64,000 nucleotides of DNA, taken from positions 84,078 to 148,077 of the forward strand of contig MFNL01000001.1 of the NCBI GenBank assembly GCA_001782035.1, in the 5' to 3' direction. The notes under the pieces were generated by a model. That model did no database searches. It had not been told where the DNA came from and saw nothing but the letters and a program-made list of their open reading frames with translations. The number at the start of each line of letters is the position of its first letter. Position 1 is the stretch's first letter. The translations under genes were made by a program, and so were the position numbers. Below are positions 29,397-63,106 of this stretch, piece by piece. Source of the DNA: Candidatus Levybacteria bacterium RIFCSPHIGHO2_01_FULL_37_17. Lineage in GTDB: Bacteria > Patescibacteriota > Microgenomatia > Levybacterales > UBA12049.

Positions 29397-29415
29397 TTTG
29401 GGGCAATTATAGCAG

Positions 29416-30162: not shown

Positions 30163-30213
30163 TTAAGATAAGTACTGTATACACTTTTGCATAATTCTTG
30201 TCAATTGGGGCAA

Positions 30214-38418: not shown

Positions 38419-38469
38419 AATACTATTATATAGCTTGCAGACAATGTCTGCCTAATTCTATTGATTTAC

Positions 38470-40530
38470 TCACAATTTCTCTCTTTTCAAAAGAAGCGCA
38501 TTAGCCACAACTATTAATGAAGAAGCGGTCATAAGAAGAGCTGCCCACTCCGGCCTTAGTAGAATTCCTAGCTTATAAAATGCACCTGCTGCAGCAGGTA
38601 TTGTAATAATATTATACCCAGCTGCCCAGAAAAGATTTTGAACCATTTTTGAATTTGTTTTTTGAGAAAGTCTGATTGCTTTCACAACATCTCTAGGGTC
38701 ATTTCTCATGAGAATTATTTCTGCGGACTCTATAGCTACGCCCGTACCTGCACCGATAGCTAGTCCAATGTGAGCTTGCGTTAAAGAAGCTGCATCATTT
38801 ACCCCGTCACCAACCATTGCTACGATATTCCCTTTTTTTTGTAGCTGCTTGATCTTATTGACTTTATCTTTTGGCAAGACATCTGCAAAATAGATATCTA
38901 TGCCTAGTTTCTTCGCGACCAGTTTTGCAACATCTTCATGATCACCTGTTAGCATCGCTGTTTTTATGCCCATCTTTTTAAATGATTCTATTGCTTCTGC
39001 AGATTCTGGCCTTATAATATCTGCAAGTCCAATAGCGCCAATTAACTTTTTATCGATTGCTACAAAAATATAAGTAGATCCCTCAGTTTTCTTGAAAATT
39101 ATTTTTTTATTTCCAATTTTATATTCATCTATGAGAATTTGATTTCCTATCAAAATTTCTTTTCCTGAGAATTTTGCCAGTGCACCTTTGCCGGGAATTG
39201 ATCTAAATTCCTTCACCGCTTCAAGCTTAATTTTTTTGTGTTTTGCGTAATCGATAATTCCCAAAGCAATAGGATGCTGGGAGAAACGTTCGACAGAAGC
39301 AGCCAATTTTAGAATTTCTTCTTTTGAGACTTTGGCAAATGGGATTATGTCTGTGATACCAAATTTACCTTCGGTTAGTGTACCCGTCTTGTCTAAAACT
39401 ATATAGTTAAGCTTTCTTGAAATTTCTAAGGCTTTCATGTCTTTAATTAAAATTCCGTGCTTTGCAGCAAGCGCGGTTGTAATAGTTGTAACAGTAGGAA
39501 TAGCAAGTCCCAAGGCGTGAGGACAGGCTATTACGATAACCGATATGGCTAAAGTTCCTGCAAAAATAAGCCCCTGCGAAGTTGCTAGAGACCAAAATAA
39601 AAAAGTCGATATACCAACAGAAAGAGCTGCGAAAGTCAAAAAGCCTGCTGCCTTATCTGCAATTTTTTGAACCTCTGGTTTTGAATCCTGGGCCTGTCTA
39701 ATGAGCTCCATCATCTGTGAGATTGCAGTCTCATCACCAGTTTTTGTTACCTTAATGGTAAGCGTCCCATCGCTATTTATTGTTCCTCCTATAACACTTG
39801 ATGCCTCACTTTTGTTAACTGGCACAGACTCTCCCGTAATCATCGATTCATTGACTGCGGATACACCTTCTATAACTTCTCCATCAATTGGTATTTTTTC
39901 TCCCGGACGGATTAGGATAAGATCTCCTTTTTTAAGCTCATCAGTTTGAATATCTCTAAGACTCTCCCCATCAATTAGATGCGCTTGTGGCGGAATAAGC
40001 CTAGTAAGCTCTTTTAGAGCACCCGTAGCTCCTCTTACCGCTCTCATTTCTATCCAATGTCCGAATAGAAAAGCCAAAGCCAAGGTCGAAATTTCCCAAT
40101 ATAAACTTTCGCCTGGAAATAGGAACGTGGCGGCAACCGAAAATAAATAACCAGACAATAAAGCTAAAGATACAAGCGTCATCATTCCGTATTTTTTTGC
40201 TCTTATTTCGGATAGACCCATTTGGAACAAGGGGAGTCCTCCCCAAAAAACGATCACAGACGAAAGAACAAAAATTACTATTTCTTGGTAGGGGACACTC
40301 AACGAAAACCTTAACCACTCCTGAATCTTTTCCGAAAGAATTAAAACAAAAAGAGTAAGCGGAAGACTTAGGAAAAAGCGTTTTTTAAAGCTTTTTTCCA
40401 TATCTTTGTGATTAATATCTTCTCGCCCACGTTCTATCGGGACGAGATCCATCCCACACTTAGGACATTTTGAGGACCTTTTGCTTATTATTTCGGGATC
40501 CATCGGACACGTATAAAGACTTTTATGCAT
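38470..40530 (-). CDS. copA: copper-translocating P1B-type ATPase (CPH motif) with an N-terminal CPxxP...CPxCGM metal-binding ribbon
   Basis: DKTGTLT, the CPH transmembrane metal site, the GDGVNDA hinge, and an N-terminal CPMDPE...CPKCGM. Confidence 0.9.
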   Translation of the reverse strand: MHKSLYTCPMDPEIISKRSSKCPKCGMDLVPIERGREDINHKDMEKSFKKRFFLSLPLTLFVLILSEKIQEWLRFSLSVPYQEIVIFVLSSVIVFWGGLPLFQMGLSEIRAKKYGMMTLVSLALLSGYLFSVAATFLFPGESLYWEISTLALAFLFGHWIEMRAVRGATGALKELTRLIPPQAHLIDGESLRDIQTDELKKGDLILIRPGEKIPIDGEVIEGVSAVNESMITGESVPVNKSEASSVIGGTINSDGTLTIKVTKTGDETAISQMMELIRQAQDSKPEVQKIADKAAGFLTFAALSVGISTFLFWSLATSQGLIFAGTLAISVIVIACPHALGLAIPTVTTITTALAAKHGILIKDMKALEISRKLNYIVLDKTGTLTEGKFGITDIIPFAKVSKEEILKLAASVERFSQHPIALGIIDYAKHKKIKLEAVKEFRSIPGKGALAKFSGKEILIGNQILIDEYKIGNKKIIFKKTEGSTYIFVAIDKKLIGAIGLADIIRPESAEAIESFKKMGIKTAMLTGDHEDVAKLVAKKLGIDIYFADVLPKDKVNKIKQLQKKGNIVAMVGDGVNDAASLTQAHIGLAIGAGTGVAIESAEIILMRNDPRDVVKAIRLSQKTNSKMVQNLFWAAGYNIITIPAAAGAFYKLGILLRPEWAALLMTASSLIVVANALLLKREKL

Positions 40531-40675
40531 GATTATTTATATACTTATCAGGATTTTCGTCAAAGCTTTTTTTACAATAAGAGGAGCAAAATACATAAAT
40601 TTTTTCATTATAGACGCTTTGAAATTTGAGATTATTAGAATCAACATCCATTCCACAAACAGGATCTTTTACCAT
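40523..40675 (-). CDS. unannotated YHS-domain small protein (50 aa)
   Basis: Reverse-strand ORF MVKDPVCGMDVD...YVFCSSYCKKSFDENPDKY... carries DPVCGM and a second Cys pair. A strong SD (AGGAGGTGAT) is upstream. Its last codons overlap the copA ATG. Confidence 0.7.
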   Translation of the reverse strand: MVKDPVCGMDVDSNNLKFQSVYNEKIYVFCSSYCKKSFDENPDKYINNHA

Positions 40676-40691
40676 ATAAAATCACCTCCTA

Positions 40692-40964
40692 TTAATTATT
40701 TTTCTTAAATACTTGCATTATTTCCCTGATTGCCTCGTCTTTCTTACCTTTTGAGATCTGGTTTGCAACGCACTTTTTTAAATGGTTTTCTAGAAGAAGA
40801 TTTCCAGTTTCCTTAAGTCCTGATTCTATTGCCTGTATTTGATGCATTATATCTATGCAATAAGCATCTTCATCCATCATTTTGATAACCTTATCAAGAT
40901 GTCCGCGCCCAATCTTTAAGCGATGTGTTACTCTTTCGTGTGTATCACGTGGTCTATATGCCAT
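40692..40964 (-). CDS. csoR: CsoR/RcnR family metal-sensing transcriptional repressor
   Basis: 90 aa. Helical DUF156 pattern with the conserved Cys (YCIDIMHQ) and a His/Cys C-terminal region. Confidence 0.8.
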   Translation of the reverse strand: MAYRPRDTHERVTHRLKIGRGHLDKVIKMMDEDAYCIDIMHQIQAIESGLKETGNLLLENHLKKCVANQISKGKKDEAIREIMQVFKKNN

Positions 40965-40985
40965 ATATCCCCCCTATGGGGATAT
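40965..40985. promoter_or_regulatory. perfect inverted repeat ATATCCCC-CCTAT-GGGGATAT abutting the csoR start; candidate CsoR operator
   Basis: 8-bp arms read directly, with a GC-rich core like known CsoR boxes. TTGACA and a TACCAT -10-like box lie just upstream on the coding strand. Confidence 0.65.
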
Positions 40986-41041
40986 GGTAGCATCTTGAAT
41001 AAACTCCTGTCAAGAGAAGGTGCCTCGGCACTAAAAAGCGG

Positions 41042-47317: not shown

Positions 47318-47800
47318 ATGAATATCCTTATTTATCAAATTTCAAAACTTTTACCCGAAAACAAGGCTCATGCTCACTGCGATATCCCTTGTGGGATTTA
47401 TGATCCTCACATGGCACAAATGGCAGCTCATACAGTTTTGCGAATGACTCAGCTTCTTACCCAAATTAAAGGAGAATCACTTGAGTCGCAGCACACTATT
47501 GCAAGAGTCACAGATGTAAAAGAAGAGCATGGAGAGTTAGTAGAAGATGAACTTGGGACATTAGAAAATGATTATTTTAAAGAAGAACATTTCGAAAATT
47601 TTCCTAAATTAAAAGAATTAATAAGCAAAGCCGTAAAATTATCAATAACAACAAGACAAAATATAGACGAAAATTCAGCTAAAGATCTGGTAGAGTCGGT
47701 TTTGCAAATCTCTGAAATATTTTTCAAAACAAAAGGTGCGACCCCAGTAAGAGTAAAGTCTGTTTATCCCACCGAGGGCGAAATTGTAACCCACAAATAA
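47318..47800 (+). CDS. sodN: nickel-containing superoxide dismutase precursor
   Basis: Pro-peptide ends ...KAHA, followed by the Ni-hook HCDIPCGIYDP. A ~140-aa four-helix body follows. Confidence 0.8.
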   Translation: MNILIYQISKLLPENKAHAHCDIPCGIYDPHMAQMAAHTVLRMTQLLTQIKGESLESQHTIARVTDVKEEHGELVEDELGTLENDYFKEEHFENFPKLKELISKAVKLSITTRQNIDENSAKDLVESVLQISEIFFKTKGATPVRVKSVYPTEGEIVTHK

Positions 47801-48087: not shown

Positions 48088-48593
48088 TGGAATTTATTTT
48101 GATTATTGGGGTCATTTTTATTTTACTGGTACTTCTTTCTTTTGTATGGCCACCTGATAGTCCTTGGGCACCATGGTGGAGAACCTCCAAAGAGGTTGCA
48201 AGAAAAATTTGTAAATTATCCAAAGTTGGCAGTAGTGATATAATTTATGACTTAGGATCTGGGGATGGTACTGCTTTAATAGTTGCAGCAAAAGAATTTG
48301 GTGCAACAGGAGTAGGTATTGAAATTGATCCGGGACGAGCTTTTATATCAAAGATGCTAGTTGCTAAAAATAAGGTTTCTAGAAAAGTTAGAATAGAAAG
48401 GAAAAACTTTTTCGATGTTAATCTTTCAGATGCAAGCGTAATTTTTTTATATTTGGTTCCAAAAACATTAGAAAAGCTAATACCAAAGTTTCGGAAAGAA
48501 TTAAAAAAAGGAACGAAAATAGTAAGCTATAGATATAAGATGGATTTAGAGTTAATTGGTAACTCTGAAGATTTATACCTTTATACTATTTAA
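48087..48593 (+). CDS. class I SAM-dependent methyltransferase
   Basis: DLGSGDGTALIVAAKEFGATGVGIEID motif I / post-I. Confidence 0.7.
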   Translation: MEFILIIGVIFILLVLLSFVWPPDSPWAPWWRTSKEVARKICKLSKVGSSDIIYDLGSGDGTALIVAAKEFGATGVGIEIDPGRAFISKMLVAKNKVSRKVRIERKNFFDVNLSDASVIFLYLVPKTLEKLIPKFRKELKKGTKIVSYRYKMDLELIGNSEDLYLYTI

Positions 48594-49539
48594 ATCTAAG
48601 AACAAACCAGCGTATTTTATCCGCGATTTTATACACAGTATACATAAAGGGATTTATAACTAAATCATAACTGCCGACAAATTCTATCAACCGCGCTCCA
48701 TAACCCTGTTTAAATTTGTGAAAACCAAACCAAGGGTCGTTAGGATTTGGATTTTCTCCTAAAGACCCCCACATGTCAAACTTTTTCAAACCCATAATTT
48801 GCCCAAATTTAATTGCCTCCCACATCATTAAATTTGAAGCCATGGTCTCTTTATATTTTGTGCTGGATGCACCATAGGGATAGTAAATGGTATCGCCTAA
48901 AACAAATAATATCCATGCAACAAGTGTCTCTCCTTTATAAGTCGCTTTTAACAAATGCGCTGTGAGCTCTTCTGAGTTTGAATTTTGTAACCTGCTGTTT
49001 TTACGTAATGTTTCCCACATTAGTCTGTGGTATTTTTCGGAATGAGCATAAAATTTTTGTCTCTGGGTCGTCTCTTTTAAAAGCCTTAAATATTGCTCGA
49101 ATGCCTTATCTGAATTATCTTCTTTAACTATTACTCCTTTTCTTTGTGAAAGTCTGATATTGTATCTAGTTTTTTGGTCCATATTTTTAAGCAGTTCTTC
49201 CTCGTCCTTATCTATATCTAGAATGAAAGTATATTTTGTAAACAATGGATGTGCAGAAGGTATTAATCCAAGCGTTTTGAATTCCATTTCAAGGCCATTT
49301 TTTTTCTCAATCCTTGGCTCAAGTTGTATAAAAATACATTTTTGTTCTAATGCGATTTTTTTTAACTCTTCTAGCACTTCTTTAGATGGCATGTTTCCTT
49401 TTGGAAGATATCCTATTTTGTATTTTGTGTAGGGAAGTGGATGAAGCGATAAAACGAAATCGCCTTTTTTAATAACTTTAACTCCCGTTTTTTCTCTAAA
49501 TTCCGCCCACCTTCCTGATTGTAAAGGGTGCCTTTTCAT
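48586..49539 (-). CDS. FemAB-family peptidoglycan aminoacyltransferase
   Basis: 317 aa with the FemX-like overall pattern. Its start overlaps the pcrA stop. Confidence 0.5.
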   Translation of the reverse strand: MKRHPLQSGRWAEFREKTGVKVIKKGDFVLSLHPLPYTKYKIGYLPKGNMPSKEVLEELKKIALEQKCIFIQLEPRIEKKNGLEMEFKTLGLIPSAHPLFTKYTFILDIDKDEEELLKNMDQKTRYNIRLSQRKGVIVKEDNSDKAFEQYLRLLKETTQRQKFYAHSEKYHRLMWETLRKNSRLQNSNSEELTAHLLKATYKGETLVAWILFVLGDTIYYPYGASSTKYKETMASNLMMWEAIKFGQIMGLKKFDMWGSLGENPNPNDPWFGFHKFKQGYGARLIEFVGSYDLVINPFMYTVYKIADKIRWFVLRFK

Positions 49540-51408: not shown

Positions 51409-52089
51409 GTGCAAGACGTGACTCAAGGAAAAATACTCTACATCGTAGCCAATTTCAAGTCCAATAAAACCGAAGATGAGGCAAAAAATTGGCTTGATAA
51501 CTTTAAAAACTACAAAGGAGAAAATGCAAAACAAATAATTCTTTGCCCGCCATTTACCTTACTTCCAACATTCAAAAACTTCATAAAAATTAATTCTTTG
51601 CAAATTTCGCTGGGCGCCCAAAATGTTTCCCAATTCGATGAAGGCCCATACACAGGAGAGGAAAATGCAAAACAAATAAAAGAGTTTGCAGACTATGTGT
51701 TAATAGGGCATAGCGAAAGGAGGAATTTGTTAAACGAAACTGATGAAATGATTTCTGAAAAAGTTAGAAATTCTATCTCTAATGAATTAATACCAATATT
51801 TTTTGTCCAAACTCCTGATAGAGCAATTCCTTCAGGAGTTGAGCTCGTAGTTTACGAACCACCGAGTTCTATCAGTGGTGCAAGTGGAGGCATTGCCGAC
51901 GATATTGATGACGTTTTGAAAGCTGCGGAAAAAATAAAAGTAGCAGGACAGTATCAGGTGCTTTATGGTGGAAGTGTTAATCCAGCAAATGTTAATGATT
52001 TTACTTCAAGAACCCAAATAAGTGGTGTGGTTGTAGGAAAGGAAAGTCTTGAGGCAGACGAATTCATCAGGGTTATAGAAAATGCTTAA
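51409..52089 (+). CDS. tpiA: triosephosphate isomerase (probable GTG start; TATAAT 9 nt upstream)
   Basis: ANFKSN, GAQNVS...GPYTGE and LIGHSERR motifs. The track ORF starts at 51289, inside pcrA. Confidence 0.8.
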   Translation: MQDVTQGKILYIVANFKSNKTEDEAKNWLDNFKNYKGENAKQIILCPPFTLLPTFKNFIKINSLQISLGAQNVSQFDEGPYTGEENAKQIKEFADYVLIGHSERRNLLNETDEMISEKVRNSISNELIPIFFVQTPDRAIPSGVELVVYEPPSSISGASGGIADDIDDVLKAAEKIKVAGQYQVLYGGSVNPANVNDFTSRTQISGVVVGKESLEADEFIRVIENA

Positions 52090-53200
52090 GAGAAAAACCG
52101 GCTTTATTATTGCGGGAATTTTGGCTATTGTCGTTTTACTTTTTATAGTAAAAACCGCTAACTTTTACCCTTTTCTTTTCAACCTCTTTTTCAATAGAGA
52201 AATAAACCTTACACAAGTCAGTCCCAACAAAGTCAATATTTTAATCTTAGGAATTGGCGGCGGTAAACATGAGGGACCTCTTTTAACGGATACAATAATG
52301 CTGGCAAGTATAGATGAGGGGAAAAATAAAGCTACACTTACTTCATTGCCGCGCGACTTATGGATACCCGAACTTTCAGGTAGTAATAAAAAAATAAATA
52401 CCGCATATGCATACGGGGAATCTAAAAGGCAAGGAGGGGGATTAAAGCTTATGGAAGCAGTTGTAAGAAAAGTTACCGGTCAGCCTATCGACTATGGAAT
52501 AAGAATCGATTTCTCAGGTTTTGTTAAAGCAGTTGATATTGTAGGGGGCTTAGATATAGAAGTTGATAATAATCTTGATGATTATCTTTATCCAATTGGT
52601 GGCAAAGAAGACAATCCCTGCGGTCTTTCCGATGAACAAATAAAAGAGTTCATAGCGACAGGGCCCGCAGAGCTTGAAATAGCAGAAAAGTTTTCTTGCA
52701 GGTATGTTCATTTGCATTTTGACAAAGGTTTAACACATATGGATGGCGAAACAGCCTTAAAATTTGTGCGCTCAAGACACGCCTTGGGAGGTGAGGGGAG
52801 CGATTTTGCACGAAGTAAAAGACAGCAAAAAGTAATTTCGGCTTTTAGAGATAAAATATTATCTCCACAAACTCTTGCCAATCCGGTTACTCTAATAAAC
52901 TTATACAATACTGTTAAATCTAGTATAGATACCGATATTAAATACGACGAATTAGATGATTTTCTGAAGCTGGCGTCAAAAATGAATAAGGCGAAAATAG
53001 AGAGCGTTGTAATTGATTATGGAGATGAACAAAATGCAAGAAATGGGCTCTTGATTGAACCCCCGCTTTCCGAAGAATACAATTATTTATCGGTTTTAAT
53101 ACCTAGAATTGGAAACGGGGATTTTTCAGAAATTTCAAATTATGTCAACTGTGAATTGGAACAAGGAAATTGCAAAGTTACCCCAACCCCTAAAAACTAA
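52082..53200 (+). CDS. LytR-CpsA-Psr (LCP) family cell-envelope phosphotransferase
   Basis: N-terminal TM, then NILILGIGGG...PLLTDTIMLASID, an LCP signature. Confidence 0.75.
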   Translation: MLKRKTGFIIAGILAIVVLLFIVKTANFYPFLFNLFFNREINLTQVSPNKVNILILGIGGGKHEGPLLTDTIMLASIDEGKNKATLTSLPRDLWIPELSGSNKKINTAYAYGESKRQGGGLKLMEAVVRKVTGQPIDYGIRIDFSGFVKAVDIVGGLDIEVDNNLDDYLYPIGGKEDNPCGLSDEQIKEFIATGPAELEIAEKFSCRYVHLHFDKGLTHMDGETALKFVRSRHALGGEGSDFARSKRQQKVISAFRDKILSPQTLANPVTLINLYNTVKSSIDTDIKYDELDDFLKLASKMNKAKIESVVIDYGDEQNARNGLLIEPPLSEEYNYLSVLIPRIGNGDFSEISNYVNCELEQGNCKVTPTPKN

Positions 53201-55325
53201 CTTTATATAATTTTGACCCCCCAAAATTAAAAACTATCTCTCCTAGTTTTTTAAATTTTTCCTCTTTTAGGCTTGGATATTTTTCTTTTTCAAGTTGGGA
53301 GACAACGACATATGATATGTTGTATTTTTTAATTAAGTTTTTTGTAACGTTTAAATCCTCTGTTATATAAATAGTTTCAACATCTTTTATTCTTGGAGCC
53401 ACTACGTCATATGTTCCCCTCCATAACCATTCATGAACCGGCCAGCCAACAACTGTTGGAAGACCGGTGTTTGCCGAAATTCGGGCGTAATCGGTATACG
53501 AATCCCCATTTGCCTCTAAAATTATCGGCTGTCCTTTTACATTTTTTCCCAGCCATTTTATTATTTGGTAGTCCTGAGGATGTGTTTTTTCCAAATAGGC
53601 TAACCCATCAAGCCCTTGATATTTTCTAAAATCAGCGTAAAAAGAATTTATAGCAAATATACTGTAGGATAGAACCATATAAATAAGAATAAATGAAGGA
53701 ATAAAAAATAATATAATTTCCCTTTTCGTTTTTAAATTAGTTAAAATCCGAAAAACAATATAACCACAAGATACTGATAACATGATAAAAGCTTCGTAAG
53801 AGAGCTTAAACATTGTATTAGCTCTGTAATGAGCTGGATAAATGTCCTTTAAGTAAATAAATTCAGGAATTATCAAAAGAATGGTCGAGAGAATAATAAG
53901 CAGCGATACAAATTTATCAGCTAAGTATATTTTGCCCTTATTTACTCTTAAAAAAATAATGAAAAAAATTACAAAGAAATAAAAAAATCCATATAAAACC
54001 ATAAGTTGCCAAACTGGAGATCTTTGACAATGCTGCGCTTCAAATAAAAATGGTCCAATTTTTCCAAGAGAAGTTAGCAGTTCTGGCGCACATAAAACCC
54101 CAATACCCGAAGCAAAAGGCTTAAAGTGAATACTGAAAGGCAAGGAAAATATAACAAAGCTAAAAAAAACAACACCTATTTTGTAAATGATATTCAGCAA
54201 TCCTTTTTTTCGAAAGAGAAATATCAAAATAAAAACCGTAAGTAAAAAATATATCAAACCGTCCCAGGCATTTGTCATGTACATAACTGCAATAAGAAAA
54301 CCGATAAAGATAAAAAATAAAAATTCAAAATTTATAATGATTTTCCCTAATTTAAATATAATTTGTGAAAAAGTTTGATGACCGCCAAATCTATAAAAGA
54401 AAGAAAAAAGAATAGCAATGGTTAAAACAACGAATGGAATATCAAGTACATGTCCATGTAAATCTGATACAACAAAAGAATACATTGGGAATTCGTGAAT
54501 TGTGTACTCAATAAATCTGGTAGCATTCGGATACCAGTAATCATTAGGAAAATTAAAAAGTTGAAATGGCAAAGTCCAAAACGGAACAGGTTTATCCAGA
54601 GGCATATATGCTTTGAAGAAAGTATATATAGTAGTTAGGTTTCCTCCAAATGTTACTAATGTTGCAGAAAGAAGTCCGGCAAAAGTCGCTTTAATACCTA
54701 TTTTGATATGTGCAAATAAGTTCATGACTAAAGAAAATACTGTTGCAAAAGTTAACGAAAAAAGCGTTGCAAGCATAAGATTATATCCAATAAAAGCGGG
54801 TATATTGGACGCTTTTATAATTACAGCTGTGACCAAATGCCCGAAATAATAGTAATTTATTGGAAGAGGTGGATACCACATATCCAAGGGGGGGAAGTAG
54901 GTGCTCCGTAAAATTGAATTTATAAATCCGAAGTCCATAAATTTTTCAAGCCCATTTATGTCAGGCAAATTCCCCCTGACGAATGCCCAACAAGCAAGTC
55001 CTGCAAAAAATAAAAGTTCTTCAAATACTATTAATTTTAAATTTTGTTTAACAAGTTTAATAAGATTTATTTTTTTAGCAATATAAATGTTCAAAATTAG
55101 AAATATAAAGGTGATCGTCAAAATTTCAAAAAAAGAAAAAGGAAAGAGTTTTAACGAAGAAGTTATAAATACCGCATAAGAAATACAAGCGAGTGCCATT
55201 ACTTTTGAAAAGATGTATCCTTTATCTTTAAAATTTCTAAACAGGATAAAGGTAAGTGGTAAAAATATTGTACCCCCCAAAAAAATAGTTAACCACCATT
55301 GAGAAATGTATAAACTATCAATCAT
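53190..55325 (-). CDS. large polytopic membrane protein, GT-C-type glycosyltransferase-like (DUF2298/PMT-like)
   Basis: 711 aa, more than 12 TM helices, with a C-terminal soluble domain. Confidence 0.45.
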   Translation of the reverse strand: MIDSLYISQWWLTIFLGGTIFLPLTFILFRNFKDKGYIFSKVMALACISYAVFITSSLKLFPFSFFEILTITFIFLILNIYIAKKINLIKLVKQNLKLIVFEELLFFAGLACWAFVRGNLPDINGLEKFMDFGFINSILRSTYFPPLDMWYPPLPINYYYFGHLVTAVIIKASNIPAFIGYNLMLATLFSLTFATVFSLVMNLFAHIKIGIKATFAGLLSATLVTFGGNLTTIYTFFKAYMPLDKPVPFWTLPFQLFNFPNDYWYPNATRFIEYTIHEFPMYSFVVSDLHGHVLDIPFVVLTIAILFSFFYRFGGHQTFSQIIFKLGKIIINFEFLFFIFIGFLIAVMYMTNAWDGLIYFLLTVFILIFLFRKKGLLNIIYKIGVVFFSFVIFSLPFSIHFKPFASGIGVLCAPELLTSLGKIGPFLFEAQHCQRSPVWQLMVLYGFFYFFVIFFIIFLRVNKGKIYLADKFVSLLIILSTILLIIPEFIYLKDIYPAHYRANTMFKLSYEAFIMLSVSCGYIVFRILTNLKTKREIILFFIPSFILIYMVLSYSIFAINSFYADFRKYQGLDGLAYLEKTHPQDYQIIKWLGKNVKGQPIILEANGDSYTDYARISANTGLPTVVGWPVHEWLWRGTYDVVAPRIKDVETIYITEDLNVTKNLIKKYNISYVVVSQLEKEKYPSLKEEKFKKLGEIVFNFGGSKLYKVSF

Positions 55326-56959
55326 AAACTAGATTCACACGATTTTAAATTAAATATATAATATCCGACACTTTCGTTGGTATATAATCTTTCAAAATTG
55401 TTTTCAAAAAAACTTTTATTAATTAAAACTTCTCGAGAATTATTTATTTCTACAAAATTCAAGGCATTATCTCTTACGCTTTCACAAAAAAAGGATAGAC
55501 TAGTTGTATTTAAAAGTTCTTTTCTAAGATTATCTCTTGCTAATGTATCATACCCCTGACTCCATGCGAAATATGGCCAACCAAGGAATATTTTACGACC
55601 GGCAACAGAGGCCTTATCCATAAAAAATTGAGTGTTGAGAAATATGGAATTTGGTGGGGTATTTTTAGTAATCCATTGGACATCCGGGTCGCTTTTGTCA
55701 GCAAGCGCAATTTTACCGTCGTTAAAGATTGGAAAAAAATCTATAACTCCGGAGAAAATTAAAAGGAAGAATAAAATAACTACAACCGGTTTTAACACAT
55801 CTTTTCTCTTCCAAAGTTCAACCAGAGCATAAGCACTAAACATGCTACCCACAATTAAAAAATAATTAAAAAATTTATGGTTGGCCGCAATCTCCGGAGA
55901 AAACTGTATTAAGTTTCCTATTACAAATAAAAGAAAAAAGGAAATAAAAATTTTCTTGTTAAACTTAGCTGCAAGAAAAAATCCGATGGGAATTAATATA
56001 AGATGAAATCCTAAATTCATCCACCAATAATTCAAAAAGTTCACGAAATTTAACTGTTCAACAAGATAACCGGGATGAAAGTTAAATTGATAATTAGAAG
56101 GAATACTATTCATATATTTATATAAAGGAAAAGAAACAATTGCGGAAAAAACAAGTGTTATAAAAATAAATAAACGCTCCTTCTTTAAAAATACAAAAAA
56201 AGAAAAAAGGACCACAAATGTCATAAGAAAAACCGCCATATTTAAAATGAAGGAAATACCAAGAGATATTCCTATCAGGATTGAAGTTAGAATCGCTTTC
56301 TTTTTATCCGAGAAGGTTTCCAAATTTAAAAACAAATAAAGTATAAAAAGAGATAACGCAAAAGAAAGAGCAAGGTGTCTTTGGTTTGTATAAATATTCA
56401 AATTCCAAAAAGCAGAAACAATGCTTGTATGATCATAAGGACCGAAAGAAGGAAAGGAGTTATTAGAAAGTATTCCTAATAAAGTACTTTGTGAGATGGG
56501 ATGTTCGGAAAAATATTTTATAAAACTTAAAGATCCATTAAAAAGGAAAAAAATTACACTTAAAATTGCAACAGCCGTTGATTTAAAAATCTTTTTTGCA
56601 AAAATATAAATCATTATAAATAGCAAGGAGAATCCAAATATCGAAGGGATGTTTAAGGCATAGTCAATGGGAAGACCAATTCTTTCCAGTATTCCTGCAA
56701 ATGTATAAAAAAGGAAGTGATATTTAATGGGTTGACCGGAAAACAAAGGATATTCTGGAGGAAAATTATTTCCCAATGAAAAACTTCTAATTAATGGTAT
56801 ATGACTTCCGAAATCACTCCAGGCTTTAGAGGCTATTAACATGTTTCCATTTGCGTAAGAAAAAGTTGAAAACATGAGCCAAGAGGAAAAAATAATTGAA
56901 AATAAAATTAAGATGATCTCGAATTTATATTTCTTAGATAAGTTGATCAAGTTATGCAT
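55322..56959 (-). CDS. large polytopic membrane protein, GT-C-type glycosyltransferase-like
   Basis: 545 aa, more than 10 TM helices. Overlaps the upstream gene by 4 nt. Confidence 0.45.
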   Translation of the reverse strand: MHNLINLSKKYKFEIILILFSIIFSSWLMFSTFSYANGNMLIASKAWSDFGSHIPLIRSFSLGNNFPPEYPLFSGQPIKYHFLFYTFAGILERIGLPIDYALNIPSIFGFSLLFIMIYIFAKKIFKSTAVAILSVIFFLFNGSLSFIKYFSEHPISQSTLLGILSNNSFPSFGPYDHTSIVSAFWNLNIYTNQRHLALSFALSLFILYLFLNLETFSDKKKAILTSILIGISLGISFILNMAVFLMTFVVLFSFFVFLKKERLFIFITLVFSAIVSFPLYKYMNSIPSNYQFNFHPGYLVEQLNFVNFLNYWWMNLGFHLILIPIGFFLAAKFNKKIFISFFLLFVIGNLIQFSPEIAANHKFFNYFLIVGSMFSAYALVELWKRKDVLKPVVVILFFLLIFSGVIDFFPIFNDGKIALADKSDPDVQWITKNTPPNSIFLNTQFFMDKASVAGRKIFLGWPYFAWSQGYDTLARDNLRKELLNTTSLSFFCESVRDNALNFVEINNSREVLINKSFFENNFERLYTNESVGYYIFNLKSCESSL

Positions 56960-58241
56960 TTTTTGATATCAATCTAGCTACTTTTTCTCCCAGCTCAACT
57001 GCATAATTTGTTCCCCTATCCCATGGATATACCTGTTCGATATTAGCAAGGTAAACATGTTTTAAAGGAGTTTTGAATGGAGGAATCATTTTCGAATAAT
57101 TAGTTGGAATAATAGGTTGTGCAAATGGAGCTTTGAATAGTTCGTATCCGATAAGATTGTCTTTATAATTTAAATTTATCTTTTTTAGAAATGGGTCAAA
57201 TCTTTCAAGCATCTGCTCTTTAGTCATTGAAAAATACTCATCCGTATGTTCTCTATAATTCCCTAAATATAACAGTCGTTCGTTGTCGTAATTTTCTTTG
57301 TCCATAAAATTTGTGTGCTCCACTATTGCCATAACCGGAGCAGTTTTATCACAAACACTCAACCAGTAAGTTCCATCATTGAAAAACGGCTCTCTGAGTC
57401 TGAGGATCAAATTTGTCGCTCCTAAACCCTTAAGTTTTCCAAGTGTATTTTTATAAGTTTCAGGAAGATTGGAAGCGATTTTTAAAAAAAGAAAAGATGG
57501 TGTTGTTACAATAACCACATCGAAGTTTTCAATTTCCAATTTTGAATTTTTAATGTTTCTGAATTTAATTTGTGGTTTGTTTTCTGAACTAAGTTCTAAA
57601 ATTTCTGTTTCAAATAAAACTTTTCCACCTCGTTCTCTAATTTTTCCGACAATACAGTTTGCGAAATTCAGAAATCCTCCTTTGGGATATGCAAGAGAGG
57701 GGGTTCTTTTTTTAATCCTTGCCCAAAACCAGGAAAGAGAAACGTCATTTATATATTTCCCGAACTTATTTACAAATAGAGGTTTCCAAATAAGGCTATA
57801 AGCTTTTAAACCCATAAGTTTGGGTAAAACAATAGAAGCTTTGTATTTCTCGAGAGTTTTCCAAAACGGATAAAACTTAAAAAACGCGATAACTATGCTC
57901 ATTCTTAACCTACTTATTAATGTGAGCAAGGGAAATTTTAAAACAGAAATTGGAGAATCAAGTTGAAATATTTTGTAATTAACAAGTATAGATGTCTTTG
58001 GCCCTTTTATGATGACTTTGTAATTAATTTCCTTAGCCAAATTTAAAACGCTATAGTCGTTAGTAAACCAGTGGTGGTAGTGTTTTTCCAGCGACCACTT
58101 CCAATTATTTTCTTTATATCCAATTGCAAGACCGCCGGGATTTTGATCTTTCTCAAAAACAGTAACATCGTTACCTTTTTTTACTAATTCATAAGCTGCG
58201 GAAAGGCCGGTAAATCCGGCGCCAATTATTGCTACCTTCAT
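56952..58241 (-). CDS. NAD(P)/FAD-dependent oxidoreductase (amine-oxidase/CrtI-like fold)
   Basis: MKVAIIGAGFTGLSAAYEL dinucleotide-binding N-terminus; 429 aa. Confidence 0.65.
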   Translation of the reverse strand: MKVAIIGAGFTGLSAAYELVKKGNDVTVFEKDQNPGGLAIGYKENNWKWSLEKHYHHWFTNDYSVLNLAKEINYKVIIKGPKTSILVNYKIFQLDSPISVLKFPLLTLISRLRMSIVIAFFKFYPFWKTLEKYKASIVLPKLMGLKAYSLIWKPLFVNKFGKYINDVSLSWFWARIKKRTPSLAYPKGGFLNFANCIVGKIRERGGKVLFETEILELSSENKPQIKFRNIKNSKLEIENFDVVIVTTPSFLFLKIASNLPETYKNTLGKLKGLGATNLILRLREPFFNDGTYWLSVCDKTAPVMAIVEHTNFMDKENYDNERLLYLGNYREHTDEYFSMTKEQMLERFDPFLKKINLNYKDNLIGYELFKAPFAQPIIPTNYSKMIPPFKTPLKHVYLANIEQVYPWDRGTNYAVELGEKVARLISKNA

Positions 58242-58243
58242 AA

Positions 58244-59617
58244 TTAAATAGCTCCCCGGGTCAGAAGGAAGATGAGGCCTCCGAATAGGGTTACTAAGAG
58301 GCCTACAATTGAGAATGTAATTATACTGGAATTGCCCGTTGGAGCAAGGGTAGGCGTTGCAGTTATAACCAGGTTTTGCGCAGGAGCTTGGGTGGGCGTA
58401 GCTGTTAATAAAACTTGCGTTGGCTCTGCGCTAATGCTTAGAGCCGGGGTCGGTGTCGGAGTGGCTGTAATACTTGGCTGAGGTGTAGGAGTAGGAGAAC
58501 CTTTATCTCCTGAAATTTGCGTGCCGGATGCATAAACAGTAAAAGACTGTTTTATAATTTTTATAATACCGGAGGAATCTTTTGTGGTAATTGTTATTGT
58601 ATGCTCTCCGGGAGAAAGATCATTTTGTGGCCTGTAAACCCAATTCCCATTCCCGTCTGCTTTTACTGTTGTTTGAATTTGCTCCTCGGAATTAATAACA
58701 ATTTGTACCTCCTCATTCGGTATAGCAGTCCCTTTAAATTGAGGCTTTTGGTCCGTAAATTCCTGATCTTTTTGAGGGGTCAAAATCTTGGGACCTTCTT
58801 TTGTTGCTTGTCTTATTTCAAAAGGCGGAAAGCCTGATAGTTGTGATGAGGCAGATGCTTGCGGTGCGCTTGCAATAGTAAAGTCATAATCATTTGAAAG
58901 AGTAAAAGTGGGAACCGGATGGGCTTGCAAGCTTGAGAGTTTAACATTTGAAAACATCCCATCCCCGATAGAGAGTAATTTAAAAGAAGTATCAAGTTCC
59001 AGAGCAAAATATGAACTTAAATCTGAGGTTTTTAATGAATTTAGGGGGAGAACGAATGTTCCATCCGGTTTTGTAAGAGTTGAAATAACCTGTGAGCCTT
59101 CCGCCACAACATAAATTAGAGCTTCCTCAGGTGGTATGCCATCTGGTTTAATTACTATTCCACTCATTGGATCTTGCGAAGGAGGTTCGCCTGAGATAAC
59201 CGGACCGGTAGTTACCTCGAAAGGAGAAGAATTATTCGTGTAATTTCCTTTGCCGCTTATAATTACAAAATAATATTTTGTCACAGCAGAAAGATTTCTA
59301 ATTGTAAAATTATGAATCTTACGGGATTCAATTTTACCGAATTCTTGATCTCTATCATCAAGCGCAGACTGTCCTAAATTTGCACTTGTCCCGTAATTTA
59401 TTGCCCCAGTTGTTCTATCATTGGTAAAATATGAAACAGTAAACGATGCGTCTGTAATATTAGATATTCTTACATCCTTGGGCTCTTCGGAGGGCGTTGC
59501 GGATATCGGTAAATAACCTCCTTTTTGCACTAAAAAAGTCGTAGCTCCAATTCCAAGAACAAGAACTAAAATTGCAAAGAGAGTTGGAATTCTTCTATTC
59601 CAGAAACTTTTTTTCAT
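58244..59617 (-). CDS. cell-surface protein: N-terminal TM, Ig/FN3-like repeats, Pro/Thr-rich stalk, C-terminal LAPTG + hydrophobic + basic sorting-signal-like tail
   Basis: The C-terminus ...ATPTLAPTGNSSIITFSIVGLLVTLFGGLIFLLTRGAI matches the LPXTG/LAXTG cell-wall-sorting-signal architecture. Confidence 0.55.
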   Translation of the reverse strand: MKKSFWNRRIPTLFAILVLVLGIGATTFLVQKGGYLPISATPSEEPKDVRISNITDASFTVSYFTNDRTTGAINYGTSANLGQSALDDRDQEFGKIESRKIHNFTIRNLSAVTKYYFVIISGKGNYTNNSSPFEVTTGPVISGEPPSQDPMSGIVIKPDGIPPEEALIYVVAEGSQVISTLTKPDGTFVLPLNSLKTSDLSSYFALELDTSFKLLSIGDGMFSNVKLSSLQAHPVPTFTLSNDYDFTIASAPQASASSQLSGFPPFEIRQATKEGPKILTPQKDQEFTDQKPQFKGTAIPNEEVQIVINSEEQIQTTVKADGNGNWVYRPQNDLSPGEHTITITTKDSSGIIKIIKQSFTVYASGTQISGDKGSPTPTPQPSITATPTPTPALSISAEPTQVLLTATPTQAPAQNLVITATPTLAPTGNSSIITFSIVGLLVTLFGGLIFLLTRGAI

Positions 59618-59919
59618 TACAACAAGCTTCCTCCGGGACTTGCTTGAGCACTCTGGGTGCTTGCAATGGGTGGAGTTGGTTGTAGCTCTAATTCGGCAAT
59701 ACTGTCTTCATTTAATTGATAAGAAGGAGAAACGGAACTTCTTGATTTAAGGTCTGATATAGTTTTTTCATCAAAGTCGGGACTTATCGGTTTAATGCTC
59801 ACGTTTAGCGTGCTTGGGATGGTACTTGTAATAAAACTATGGTAGATATTAAAAATTACCCACAAAACGACTATTAGAAGAGTCGGTATAAGAAATACTA
59901 ATATATCATTTTTTTTCAT
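59617..59919 (-). CDS. small membrane-anchored protein (pilus operon member)
   Basis: 100 aa, one TM, start/stop-coupled to its neighbours. Confidence 0.4.
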   Translation of the reverse strand: MKKNDILVFLIPTLLIVVLWVIFNIYHSFITSTIPSTLNVSIKPISPDFDEKTISDLKSRSSVSPSYQLNEDSIAELELQPTPPIASTQSAQASPGGSLL

Positions 59920-59920
59920 G

Positions 59921-60529
59921 TCATTTTTTAAATATTGCTATCCCCCTAGCAGTCAGTGTTAACGTATTGTTCTCATTTTCCGCCGAAGTTATACTGATAT
60001 CGCTTAAGTCTACAATCCTATCCATTCTTACAGCGCCATTTAAAAATTCTATTAAATTTTCATAACTTCCTTGCATAGAAATATTGAAAGTAAAATAGGA
60101 GAAATCTGCAGAGTCAGAGAAATCGATAGCTTGGATTGATGCAATTGCAAGATTGTTTTCCGTTGCAAGAGCTTGGAGTTGTCCGGTAAGACGCGCAGCC
60201 TCTTCTGTTTTTGGAATCGACGCATAAATGATCGGGAGGTCATTTTTTAGAGTTTCATATTTTGTCTGCAACACCGATAAATTATTTATTTTTTGGTCTA
60301 ACCTTTCTACAACGAAGTTTGCGTCCTCCAATTGCTTTTGAAGGTTTGCAATGGTTGACAATGTGGGGTTTATTGCAAAAATAGCAAGAATCATTATTGC
60401 AATAATTGTGAGCACGATAGTTGTAAACTTTTGTGCTTTTTCCTTCTTAAAATTAGGAAGCAGCTCTAAGTATCTACCATATTGCTCTTTGTTGAATCTT
60501 TTAATTAAACTATTGAATCTGGGTTGCAT
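59921..60529 (-). CDS. PilO-like type IV pilus assembly protein
   Basis: N-terminal TM, then coiled-coil and a C-terminal domain, typical of PilO; 202 aa. Confidence 0.5.
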   Translation of the reverse strand: MQPRFNSLIKRFNKEQYGRYLELLPNFKKEKAQKFTTIVLTIIAIMILAIFAINPTLSTIANLQKQLEDANFVVERLDQKINNLSVLQTKYETLKNDLPIIYASIPKTEEAARLTGQLQALATENNLAIASIQAIDFSDSADFSYFTFNISMQGSYENLIEFLNGAVRMDRIVDLSDISITSAENENNTLTLTARGIAIFKK

Positions 60530-61076
60530 ATTTATTTTGAATTGCCTTTATTTCTGCAGATATACCAACCAAGATAACTGCCTTGTTTGTTTTAGTCTCA
60601 ATTTTGTCGATGCTTATGCTTTCAATATTAGGATTAGATTTTAAAGCAGCAACGAAACTACTTAGTGCAGATACTGAATTTACATTCATTTCCATAGATA
60701 GCGTGTTAGAGGATTTAGAAAGCTGAGTAAATGCAATTCCTTCCGGAGCAAGTTGTAGGATTTCGCTGTAAACGTTTAATTTTTTTTGAGAGCTATCTGC
60801 AAAACTCGCTGCAATGGAAAGTCTATCTTGTAAATTTCTGTACTCCTCCTCGTTTTTCTTAAAAGCCTCAACTATTGCCTGTTTTTGCTTAATCTTTGAA
60901 TGTAAGTCAATTAATTGCTGATCAAGTCCAAAACGCCACAGAAAAGCCCCTAAAGCAACGAGTTCGGTGACAATAACCAAAATTCTACCAATACTAAGAA
61001 GCCAATTTATGACTCTTTCGACTGTCTCTCCCTTGTCGCTTTTTACCAAATTAATAGAGCCAAATTTGTTTGGCAT
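60510..61076 (-). CDS. PilN-like type IV pilus assembly protein
   Basis: Short cytoplasmic N-terminus, TM, then periplasmic coiled coil; 188 aa. Confidence 0.5.
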   Translation of the reverse strand: MPNKFGSINLVKSDKGETVERVINWLLSIGRILVIVTELVALGAFLWRFGLDQQLIDLHSKIKQKQAIVEAFKKNEEEYRNLQDRLSIAASFADSSQKKLNVYSEILQLAPEGIAFTQLSKSSNTLSMEMNVNSVSALSSFVAALKSNPNIESISIDKIETKTNKAVILVGISAEIKAIQNKYATQIQ

Positions 61077-61126: not shown

Positions 61127-61399
61127 TTATTTTTTAGCTTTCGAGGGCTTAGAAGTAGTATTTTTATTTTTTACCAATTTTGAAAGTCTCGATTTGATTC
61201 TTGACGCTTTATTTTTATGAATTATATTTTTTTTCGCTGCTTTATCTGCAATTTTAATAGCTTTTTTAATTGATTCTGCCGTAGGCTTATTTTTTATTTG
61301 TTTTAGGACCTGCTTTAGGGAGTTTCTAATTAAATCGTTTCTTTTTTCACGTAAAATATCTTTTCTTAACTTTTTTTTGGCCGATTTGATAACTGGCAT
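61127..61399 (-). CDS. rpsT: 30S ribosomal protein S20
   Basis: MPVIKSAKKKLRKDILREKRN..., a classic bS20 N-terminus; 90 aa, basic. Confidence 0.85.
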   Translation of the reverse strand: MPVIKSAKKKLRKDILREKRNDLIRNSLKQVLKQIKNKPTAESIKKAIKIADKAAKKNIIHKNKASRIKSRLSKLVKNKNTTSKPSKAKK

Positions 61400-61438: not shown

Positions 61439-63106
61439 ATGCCTACTGAATTTTTTAAAAAAAGCTTGGGACTTCTTCTGAAAAGACAAAATAATATACT
61501 CTCGGCTGCAGTAGTAATAATGGGTACCATAATATTTTCACAAATTCTGGGTTTAGTTAGGCAGAGGTTGTTAGTCTCTATTTTCGGCGCCTCTGATACG
61601 CTCGGTATTTATTTAGTCTCAACAAGAATTCCAGAATTCTTATTCCAGCTCATTATTGCAGGAGCCCTAACGTCAGCATTCATACCGGTATTTTCCGACT
61701 ACTTAGCTAAAGACAAAGAGGAAGAAGCGAAAAAAATAGCTTCAACACTTTTATTTTTAAGCCTTATTATTTTTTCTGCAATTTCCGTAATATTAATAAT
61801 ATTTGCAAAAGAAATCTCCTCAATTGTAGCCCCTGGTTTTTCGGTAGCTCAAATAGAGTTAATGGCCAATCTTACCCGTATTATAATTTTGGGCGAAATT
61901 ATTTTTATTGCAGGAAGTTTTTTCTCTGCAATTCTGCAATCCTATAATCATTTTTTTATACCAGGCATAGCTTCTGCTCTGTATAACTTTGGAATAATCT
62001 TAGGAATAATTTTGTTGTATCGTTTTTTTGGGATATATTCAGCAGCATATGGTGTAATACTTGGAGCTTTAATTTTTGTCCTTGCGCAAGTTCCAACTAT
62101 TAGATCTTTAGGATTTGGATTTAGACCCAATTTATCGCTGGAATCGGTAAGAAATTCTGCCGTATGGGATGTCTTTAAGCTTATTTGGCCGCGTACTCTA
62201 TCAATTGCTGTTTTTCAGCTTGGAAGCTTAGTTACCGTTACTTTGGTATCTTTTTTACAAAATCCAGGAAGAAACTATGTTATTTATGATTATGCTCAAA
62301 CGCTGGCATTTGCCCCGGTTGCGCTTTTCGGGCAAGCAATTGCACAAGCAAGTTTCCCAGTTTTATCAAAAGAGAAAGACAATCCACAACATTTTAAACT
62401 TACTTTCATGACTAGCTTCAACCAGCTTTTATATTTAATCCTCCCAATCTCTGTTTTACTTTTGGTTTTGCGAATCCCTATAGTCAGACTAATTTACGGC
62501 GCATCTCAATTTGACTGGGAAGCGACTGTTTTAACCGGCAGAACGCTTTCTTTTTTTGCAATTTCCCTTTTTGCTCAAGCTCTTGTTTATTTGGTTTCAA
62601 GAGGATTTTACGCGCTCCACGATACAAAAACACCACTTATTATTGGTACAATTTCTACATTTTTTATGATAATACTTGCCAGCGTTTTAATTTTTTATTA
62701 TAACCTTGGAGTCGAGTCTATCGCGCTCGCTTACTCAGTGGGTTCTATTTTAAATTTCGTAATAATGTTTGTATTCTTGGATATTAAAATCGGAGGATTT
62801 CCTAAAAAGGAGTTTATAATTAGTACTACAAAAATATTGCTTGCAACTTTTTTCACCGCGTTTGCTTTATATATTCCCATAAAACTCTTAGATCAGCTGG
62901 TTTTCGACACCACAAGAACTGTTAATTTAATTCTTTTAACAGGAATTTCTAGCTTTGCTGGGTTATCTTTATACCTTTTTTTAACTTGGCTCTTCAACGT
63001 AAAAGAAGCGACCATGTTTGTTTTACTTTTCAGAAAAATTGGAGATTGGCGCCAAATCCTATCAAAATCCTCAGAGCCAATTGACGCAAACAGATTAAAC
63101 CCATAG
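61439..63106 (+). CDS. murJ: lipid II flippase MurJ/MviN
   Basis: 555 aa, 14 TM, N-terminus AAVVIMGTIIFSQILGLVRQRLL typical of MurJ. Confidence 0.8.
   Translation: MPTEFFKKSLGLLLKRQNNILSAAVVIMGTIIFSQILGLVRQRLLVSIFGASDTLGIYLVSTRIPEFLFQLIIAGALTSAFIPVFSDYLAKDKEEEAKKIASTLLFLSLIIFSAISVILIIFAKEISSIVAPGFSVAQIELMANLTRIIILGEIIFIAGSFFSAILQSYNHFFIPGIASALYNFGIILGIILLYRFFGIYSAAYGVILGALIFVLAQVPTIRSLGFGFRPNLSLESVRNSAVWDVFKLIWPRTLSIAVFQLGSLVTVTLVSFLQNPGRNYVIYDYAQTLAFAPVALFGQAIAQASFPVLSKEKDNPQHFKLTFMTSFNQLLYLILPISVLLLVLRIPIVRLIYGASQFDWEATVLTGRTLSFFAISLFAQALVYLVSRGFYALHDTKTPLIIGTISTFFMIILASVLIFYYNLGVESIALAYSVGSILNFVIMFVFLDIKIGGFPKKEFIISTTKILLATFFTAFALYIPIKLLDQLVFDTTRTVNLILLTGISSFAGLSLYLFLTWLFNVKEATMFVLLFRKIGDWRQILSKSSEPIDANRLNP

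Follow-up and report, generated by a model that had tools for sequence, protein, structure and literature searches.

Bacteria of the Candidate Phyla Radiation (CPR) depend on type IV pili for host attachment and probably for DNA uptake. Type IV pilus genes are widespread among them, and PilQ is not found in the CPR (PMC6744442). The closest described counterparts of the locus analysed here are the PilM–PilN–PilO–PilP–PilQ systems of Pseudomonas aeruginosa and Myxococcus xanthus and the type IV pilus loci of Gram-positive bacteria and Saccharibacteria, with a single membrane, the alignment proteins PilN and PilO and no secretin (PMC11623550, PMC11580942). In the latter loci the genes of PilN and PilO are grouped with those of PilM and the motor, and no LPXTG-type Ig-domain protein is described as their fixed partner. 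Here we analyse a stretch of 64,000 nucleotides (the window) from Candidatus Levybacteria bacterium RIFCSPHIGHO2_01_FULL_37_17, an uncultivated member of the Microgenomates within the CPR from Rifle groundwater. In this window a pilN-like and a pilO-like gene are followed by the genes of a 100-amino-acid (aa) membrane protein (p100) and of a 457-aa envelope protein (p457) with an LPXTG-type tail. The module and its upstream neighbourhood are composed as follows.

58244..59617, minus strand: p457 gene, 457-aa envelope protein
59617..59919, minus strand: p100 gene, 100-aa single-pass membrane protein
59921..60529, minus strand: pilO-like gene, 202 aa, Pfam PilO (PF04350) at 62.1 bits
60510..61076, minus strand: pilN-like gene, 188 aa, Pfam PilN (PF05137) at 27.2 bits
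61086..61114, minus strand: promoter-like element TTGACA-17 nt-TAGACT between rpsT and pilN, 9 nt before the pilN ATG
61127..61399, minus strand: rpsT (ribosomal protein S20, Pfam Ribosomal_S20p), the upstream neighbour, with the divergent murJ beyond it

The order of pilN, pilO, a small envelope protein and a large beta-rich envelope protein resembles the pilN-O-P-Q order of the Gram-negative systems, whose PilN and PilO are homologous to the proteins described here and whose INLLP-type PilN N-terminus is kept. Unlike a Gram-negative type IVa locus, the module has no adjacent pilM, p100 is not PilP, p457 carries no secretin domain and no outer membrane is present. In contrast to the Gram-positive and Saccharibacteria loci, it is detached from PilM and the motor genes and follows rpsT. 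A detached pilN/pilO module fits the published complete Microgenomates genome, because the pilus locus reported there consists of PilA, D, B, T, C and M and lists no PilN or PilO; a sortase is listed for the same genome (PMC7143001). We tentatively read the locus as a conserved pilus-platform module whose last protein would be an envelope-spanning accessory, in this clade probably linked to the wall by sortase.

The four-gene module is kept across the Microgenomates. One genome per species was scanned, giving a sample of 36 loci with relatives at 30–77% identity, and the window proteins served as queries against the open reading frames (ORFs) called in each locus. Wherever the flank is long enough, a locus contains the divergent murJ, rpsT, pilN, pilO and p457, and this synteny reaches Woesebacteria, Beckwithbacteria and Microgenomatus at 30–36% identity. 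The p100 gene was detected in 32 of the 36 loci, in each case between pilO and p457; it was not picked up in L036 and L038, L018 has no upstream flank and L031 is a short contig. Across the loci the median identity to the window protein is 50% for p457, 46% for PilN, 44% for PilO and 47% for p100, with 54% for rpsT and 52% for TIM. The most distant loci still show 33–38% identity for p457, compared with 24–31% for PilN and PilO. Such slow evolution, on a par with that of PilN and PilO, is more in keeping with a machine component than with a variable adhesin. A hypothetical protein encoded by Candidatus Levybacteria bacterium RIFCSPHIGHO2_01_FULL_3x (GCA_001782495.1, contig MFOU01000001.1) has the same sequence as p457 (100% identity).

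The four ORFs are confirmed at the coordinates listed above, all on the minus strand, and they are translationally coupled. The pilN and pilO genes overlap by 20 nt, pilO and p100 lie 1 nt apart, and at the p100/p457 junction the A of TAATG is common to stop and start. The statement of the first-pass annotation of this DNA that the operon ends with the 457-aa protein is wrong, because three tightly coupled genes come after p457. The first of them begins 2 nt past the p457 stop, and the overlaps further downstream are 8 nt for the gene of a 545-aa protein and 4 nt for the DUF2298 gene.

56952–58241, minus strand: FAD amine-oxidase-like gene (Pfam)
55322–56959, minus strand: gene of a 545-aa polytopic membrane protein with no Pfam match
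53190–55325, minus strand: DUF2298 membrane protein gene, 711 aa (Pfam)

The presence of these three genes varies between loci, and it is because they come and go that pilN, pilO, p100 and p457 are taken as the conserved unit. The three products might modify envelope glycans or Ser/Thr-rich stalks.

The module is predicted to have its own promoter. The TTGACA and TAGACT hexamers fit the consensus at 10 of 12 positions, and both are position-invariant in 25 Levybacteria loci, L030 being the one exception, with a spacer that varies, a phylogenetic footprint that argues for a promoter of the module's own. Across the Levybacteria loci the element stands 9–12 nt from the pilN ATG, and Woesebacteria-type loci have an extended -10 element, TGATATA(T/G)T, in the same place instead. 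Since no Shine-Dalgarno sequence is present between the element and the pilN ATG, the mRNA leader would be very short at most, and pilN is probably a near-leaderless first gene. Two ribosome-binding sites inside the operon are also read as protein. The conserved C-terminal Gly-Gly of p100 is encoded in frame by the GGAGGA that serves p457 as its Shine-Dalgarno sequence (59620–59640, minus strand), and the Arg-Gly codons of the p457 tail overlap the Shine-Dalgarno-like GGGGAG of the next gene (58244–58262, minus strand). Because these codons do double duty, part of the apparent protein conservation at the gene ends is set by translational coupling.

The assignments of PilN and PilO, already made in the first-pass annotation, are upheld by matches above the Pfam gathering cut-offs (22.8 bits for PilN and 22 bits for PilO). 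The PilN match is short and modest, yet above cut-off, and covers residues 103–164. Its N-terminus, which carries SINLVK, is cytoplasmic; a single membrane segment follows (residues 26–50; membrane segments were called by a Kyte-Doolittle scan), and the PilN domain is on the periplasm side. GSINLVKS occupies residues 6–13; orthologs have SINL[VLI] or SINLL(K/R) at this place, and distant orthologs have QINLLP. We take the INLLP-type N-terminal motif of PilN to be the PilM-binding peptide, as in the PilM–PilN structures from Thermus and Pseudomonas. Since this motif is kept, a PilM encoded elsewhere in the genome is to be expected; rpsT, and not pilM, is directly upstream of pilN. PilO has one N-terminal hydrophobic segment (residues 35–53) and also matches the type II secretion families T2SSM_b and GspM. 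Over residues 32–193, nearly its whole length, it resembles PilO of Myxococcus xanthus (3jc8) with an E value of 2e-4.

In p100 a membrane-adjacent conserved stretch, P-I-x-P-x-F-D...L-K-x-R, is followed by a variable Ser/Thr/Pro tail, and W20 and R60 are invariant. No Pfam or NCBIfam match was found for p100, and a profile of 19 sequences gave nothing meaningful against the PDB (the best match, at an E value of 0.025, is a camel antibody fragment). We rejected p100 as PilP, as it has no lipobox and no family match. The class III signal peptide of type IV pilins and pseudopilins (G|F-x-x-x-E) is missing from the N-terminal 60 residues of all four proteins.

The architecture of p457 was examined with Pfam and with an AlphaFold2 (AF2) model built on 26 orthologs, in which the confidence of each region is given as the predicted local distance difference test (pLDDT).

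59528..59590, minus strand: N-terminal hydrophobic helix, residues ~10–30 (Kyte-Doolittle 2.47 for segment 12–30; AF2 helix 3–32)
59210..59479, minus strand: domain 1, FN3-like beta-sandwich, residues 47–136 (Pur_ac_phosph_N at 30.8 bits and fn3, 48–137; pLDDT 80–93)
58901..59167, minus strand: domain 2, transthyretin/CarboxypepD_reg-like beta-sandwich, residues 151–239 (pLDDT 84–90)
58535..58789, minus strand: domain 3, Ig-like Big_13, residues 277–361 (Big_13 at 45.2 bits, 282–360)
58349..58531, minus strand: Pro/Thr-rich disordered stalk, residues 363–423 (pLDDT <50)
58334..58348, minus strand: LAPTG pentapeptide, residues 424–428 (CTT GCT CCA ACG GGC)
58247..58324, minus strand: C-terminal hydrophobic segment, residues 432–452, and TRGAI (Kyte-Doolittle 2.45 for segment 432–450; AF2 helix 431–453)

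The Ig/FN3-like domains and the Pro/Thr stalk reported earlier from the sequence are thus supported by Pfam, and the structure prediction agrees, with three beta-sandwiches and a disordered stalk. The CarboxypepD_reg match in domain 2 (residues 152–192) reaches 28.3 bits, below its cut-off of 32.3. Domain 1 carries an invariant acidic loop, (A)LDDRDQ. A disordered linker (244–274) separates domains 2 and 3, and disorder returns at ~365–430. The stalk consists of 18% Pro, 23% Thr, 13% Ala and 10% Ser and has no consensus among orthologs. At the N-terminus, a basic region precedes a 21-residue hydrophobic helix, and Ala40 follows about 10 residues later in an S/I-x-A context. Among 26 orthologs I10, P11, T26 and A40 are invariant, and the IPT...G...G pattern of the helix survives at 30% identity. 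By these features the helix may be either a signal peptide or a signal anchor, its length allowing an uncleaved anchor.

Foldseek with the p457 model returned tandem FN3/Ig proteins only. A word-indexed search gave 595 homologs at E<=1e-3, and an exhaustive search gave 906 50%-clusters at E<=1e-30, among them both orthologs of 430–520 aa and giant Big_13 repeat proteins. The latter, repeat adhesins with 12–53 copies, match p457 through the Big_13 domain alone. The orthologs are single-copy and of constant length (430–520 aa). Neither Cys, nor a YPK pilin motif, nor an E-box is present in p457. Two identities were tried and rejected. A sortase-polymerised Gram-positive pilin would need the pilin motif and E-box that p457 does not have, and no sortase is adjacent; a secretin/PilQ or PilP is not matched, the only domains found being FN3, CarboxypepD_reg and Big. 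PilN and PilO are members of known families, and p457 is not a secretin, PilP, pilin or Pam component.

Three further systems offer likenesses to p457. Like the LPXTG proteins of Firmicutes and Actinobacteria (TIGR01167), it combines a putative N-terminal export signal, beta-sandwiches and a Pro/Thr-rich stalk with a C-terminal pentapeptide that precedes a hydrophobic segment and a short end; unlike them, its gene is fixed in a pilus-platform operon and is neither solitary nor sortase-adjacent. By its layout p457 can also be likened to the GspC/PilP connectors, membrane-anchored beta-sandwich proteins which reach outward from PilN/PilO (GspL/GspM) and occupy the same operon position. Unlike these, it has no secretin partner here, and the likeness is one of layout and not of shown sequence or fold homology. 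The third is the Pam pilus of the CPR, like the present module a CPR-specific envelope system, whose PamR has tandem FN3 domains and a C-terminal membrane helix and is proposed to be the filament anchor (bioRxiv 10.64898/2026.03.03.709456); we compare it by its description. The pam operon differs in encoding donor-strand pilins and chaperones and no PilN/PilO, and it lies in an ATP synthase context. In full-text searches of the literature, no sorting-signal protein turned up as a fixed companion of pilN/pilO, either in the CPR or in Gram-positive bacteria.

The C-terminus of p457 reads ...TPTLAPTG-NSSIITFSIVGLLVTLFGGLIFLL-TRGAI, so the tail is present as it had been described. Among 147 unique orthologs with identity of about 45% or more, 105 have LPxTG, which is LPPTG in 91 of them; LP[PA]AG is found in 14 and LAPGG in 5. 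The first-pass annotation had related the tail to the LAXTG preference of class E sortases. This does not hold for the family, where LAxTG, with Ala at position 2, is found in only three of the 147 (the window protein among them) and the consensus is LPPTG. In the 119 close orthologs with identity of at least 47%, LPxTG stands beside the membrane segment in 96 (81%), against 0 of 238 equal-sized control windows from Pro/Thr linkers, and the wider pattern [LIV][PA]x[TSA]G is found in 97% against 0%. Within a linker that is otherwise unalignable among 26 orthologs, L424 and G428 are invariant and P425 is kept in at least 90%. A tail motif arising by chance is thereby excluded. The LPX(A/S)G form is a documented variant of the sortase motif (PMC2657157, PMC3436756).

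The same type of tail is found on proteins unrelated to p457. A PKD-domain protein just past the window end is a second protein of this genome with an LPPTG-type tail; the first-pass annotation had suggested looking for further LAPTG tails in the genome. Its C-terminus is ...SPLPPTGPTGSIIAVGALGALLFLIGAVVLLAL, ending in LLLAL with no basic residue. The protein is present in all Levybacteria loci, and its orthologs keep LPPTGP and the membrane segment, again with no basic residue. From its sequence it is a second candidate for the sorting system that would act on p457, its uncharged tail being atypical. Its N-terminus is styled like that of p457, and for this reason the N-terminal pattern of p457 may be a lineage-typical signal and not an anchor specific to a complex. 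In Woesebacteria-type loci, small Pro/Thr-rich proteins just 3' of p457 end in LPDAG, LPVAG, LPASG or LPEAG with a membrane segment. Unrelated proteins having the clade-typical tail in common is the pattern that a dedicated sorting system predicts. The module of these genomes has lineage-specific extensions. In L033, L036, L038, L039 and L040 (~11.3–14 kb) p457 is followed by a membrane-anchored Cys-rich protein of 380–505 aa and then by a protein of 150–215 aa (417 aa in L033) with an LPxAG tail (LPASG in L040) and a membrane segment, the shorter of these LPxAG-tailed proteins being Pro/Thr-rich.

The module is surrounded by genes for cell wall synthesis. These genes and that of the PKD-domain protein are the following.

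48586–49539, minus strand: FemAB gene
52082–53200, plus strand: LytR-CpsA-Psr (LCP) gene
61439–63106, plus strand: MurJ gene
L001 3628–4767, ~0.9–2 kb past the window end, between lepA and groES: gene of the PKD-domain protein, 379 aa, with LPPTG and a membrane segment

With MurJ, FemAB and LCP genes around the module, a peptidoglycan wall is evidently made. Together these genes point to peptidoglycan with interpeptide bridges and attached polymers, the acceptor chemistry that a sortase would need.

According to the reading we favour, PilN and PilO would be the membrane alignment pair of a type IV pilus machine whose PilM and PilB/PilC/PilT motor would be encoded elsewhere in the genome. The products p100 and p457 would be lineage-specific envelope partners, in the slots that pilP and pilQ have in Gram-negative pilMNOPQ operons. 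The p457 protein would be exported, with its three beta-sandwiches and the Pro/Thr stalk outside the membrane, and a housekeeping sortase would cut the LPXTG-type signal between Thr and Gly and join p457 to a peptidoglycan precursor. Once joined, p457 would serve, in a cell with neither outer membrane nor PilQ, either to tether the PilN/PilO platform to the wall or to line the path of the pilus through it. We infer in this scheme the sortase cleavage, the wall linkage, the physical association with PilN/PilO and the role in piliation.

The main rival is a membrane anchor. Here p457 would belong to a PilN/PilO complex and not be a sortase substrate, both helices would stay in the membrane, and [LIV]-P-x-x-G-[NS] would be a membrane-adjacent turn that matches LPXTG by coincidence in one clade, or else a decayed sorting signal. 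We consider this somewhat unlikely. A number of observations weigh on its side and against sortase linkage, above all the fate of the tail with distance. The motif drifts from LPPTG to xPxSG (xPDSG) and xxPG (xxPGN), with IAPPG among the variants, or vanishes, while the membrane segment is always kept; already among the 147 orthologs a few have lost the motif and kept the segment. In 124 full-length 50%-cluster representatives with 36–48% identity, LPxTG falls to 20% and [LIV][PA]x[TSA]G to 42%, 14% have Pro at the Thr position, and the remaining tails have little beyond (P/T)-G-(N/S). The 120 p457 sequences of the Woesebacteria-type clade show xP(D/E/V)SG(S/N)LTP, the membrane segment and WKKSEI, with LPxTG in 0%. 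The Gly, followed by Asn or Ser, is the only invariant residue, and we know of no precedent for Pro at the scissile-Thr position of a sortase motif. The window protein itself has Ala instead of Pro at position 2. Its TRGAI end offers one basic residue (Arg) after the membrane segment, and in 42 of 140 orthologs the last 12 residues contain neither Lys nor Arg. Conserved residues lie within both helices (I10, P11 and T26; G446 and L448), which suits retained membrane anchors.

The sorting-signal models and the gene searches weigh in the same direction. Against LPXTG_anchor (TIGR01167) the tail scores 13.7 bits, below the NCBIfam cut-off of 15.9, and its relatives score 10.7–15.1. This is the sole sorting model matched by the window protein and the commonest across the 15 tails tested, always below cut-off; two distant-relative tails match other models weakly, namely PEPxxWA-CTERM at 11.7 bits and, for the VPDSG variant, VPDSG-CTERM at 12.2 bits (cut-off 22). 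Thus p457 is built like an LPXTG surface protein but is not filed as a TIGR01167 member, being below the cut-off. No TLxTC-type motif occurs in any frame of the window, and neither a sortase motif nor SrtA similarity was found in the ORFs of loci L001–L042, which include the 36 related genomes. From ~-10 to ~+70 kb, a range that extends ~10 kb beyond the left edge of the window and ~6 kb beyond its right edge, no called gene matches Pfam Sortase, PilM, PilB/T or PilC. The statement of the first-pass annotation that the window holds neither a sortase nor pilM is thereby confirmed by motif and Pfam searches. PilB, PilC, PilD and pilins are likewise not found in the 64-kb window and its 10-kb flanks. 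Two points of a more general kind also tell against our reading, namely that the link of p457 to PilN/PilO or to pili is so far drawn from synteny, and that the AF2 model is moderate overall (pLDDT 68; predicted template modelling score 0.48).

Against the membrane anchor stand four points. LPxTG in 81% of the close orthologs goes far beyond the needs of a turn, LPPTG or LPxAG tails also occur on unrelated proteins of the same genomes, the Pro/Thr stalk just upstream is the classical wall-spanning arrangement, and a sortase family is reported from more than half of CPR genomes and as near ubiquitous in the Microgenomates (Méheust et al., PMC6744442). As to the sorting-type signal proposed at first, what stands is a clade-conserved LPXTG-type module with a Pro/Thr stalk and a second LPPTG protein; in distant orthologs the motif is degenerate. 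The plain membrane anchor in homologs lacking the motif, named at the outset as evidence against sorting, is likewise found in part, as these distant orthologs keep the segment next to the degenerate motif.

A more far-reaching form of the wall-linked reading would make p457 a structural subunit of the type IV pilus machine itself in single-membrane CPR bacteria, with sortase linking it covalently to peptidoglycan. In place of the Gram-negative tier of PilP, PilQ and peptidoglycan binding, p457 and p100 would couple the PilM/N/O platform to the wall, so that the platform could withstand the forces of extension and retraction. We regard this form as unlikely.

That p457 is an ordinary wall-anchored adhesin or matrix-binding protein, merely co-transcribed with pilN and pilO, appears quite improbable. 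FN3 and Big_13 domains, a Pro/Thr stalk and an LPXTG-type tail are the standard build of a Gram-positive surface adhesin, the Big_13 domain matches the giant repeat adhesins, and one ortholog bears the name 'Hemagglutinin/hemolysin-related protein' in NCBI records. Yet the four-gene order is invariant over deep divergence and comes with translational coupling, the conservation of p457, a single-copy protein of constant length, equals that of PilN, PilO and housekeeping genes, and a host-facing adhesin would not usually carry an invariant LDDRDQ loop and a conserved N-terminal helix. The pilus- or fibril-associated adhesin of the first-pass annotation therefore keeps its surface-protein architecture and is weakened by the median identity of 50%, on a par with PilN/PilO, and by the missing pilin motif and E-box. 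It is very improbable that PilN and PilO serve pseudopilus-type secretion or DNA uptake with p100 and p457 as cargo or wall-crossing accessory, a view that gains from the GspM and T2SSM_b matches of PilO, the need for pilus genes including pilN and pilO in matrix-protein secretion by Clostridium perfringens (PMC11580942) and the proposed action of CPR pili in DNA uptake (PMC6744442), and that loses from the Sec-type N-terminus of p457, which needs no pseudopilus for export, and from finding no secretion ATPase or pseudopilin gene near the module, the present data as such not separating a pseudopilus from a pilus.

Several features of the window lie apart from the module. The window starts with yidC (499–1323), with rnpA and yidD just to its left and dnaA and dnaN further left (L045 1–9300), and from these genes at its left edge the window is placed near the replication origin. 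Further left (L045 1–9300) there is also a type IV secretion-like cluster with two T4SS_pilin proteins, a PrgI and CarboxypepD_reg protein, a TraC-like protein and a VirB4/TraG-type ATPase. A copper-handling cluster (~29400–30200 and 37390–41000) contains a CsoR-type repressor, a YHS protein, a DsbD_2 and cupredoxin protein and an HMA protein, besides the following two genes.

29416–30162: CopC/cupredoxin protein gene
38470–40530, minus strand: Cu P-type ATPase gene

A gene for nickel superoxide dismutase (Sod_Ni, 47318–47800) adjoins an 82-aa Peptidase_S26-like ORF, possibly that of its maturation protease; such a dismutase is worth noting in a presumed anaerobe.

The locus touches the question of how type IV pili are held in, and cross, the wall of bacteria that have no outer membrane. 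If the tail is a membrane anchor only, the finding reduces to the annotation of a conserved pilus-associated gene pair. The clade-wise drift of the tail through LPPTG, xPDSG and xxPGN provides a natural series in which tail recognition by CPR sortases could be studied. Across a large CPR lineage p457 is always co-encoded with PilN/PilO, equally conserved and built like a wall-anchored stalk, which makes it a concrete candidate for the pilus machine's missing outer tier; if it is a machine subunit attached by sortase, it would be the first example of a type IV pilus basal body built with the help of sortase anchoring.

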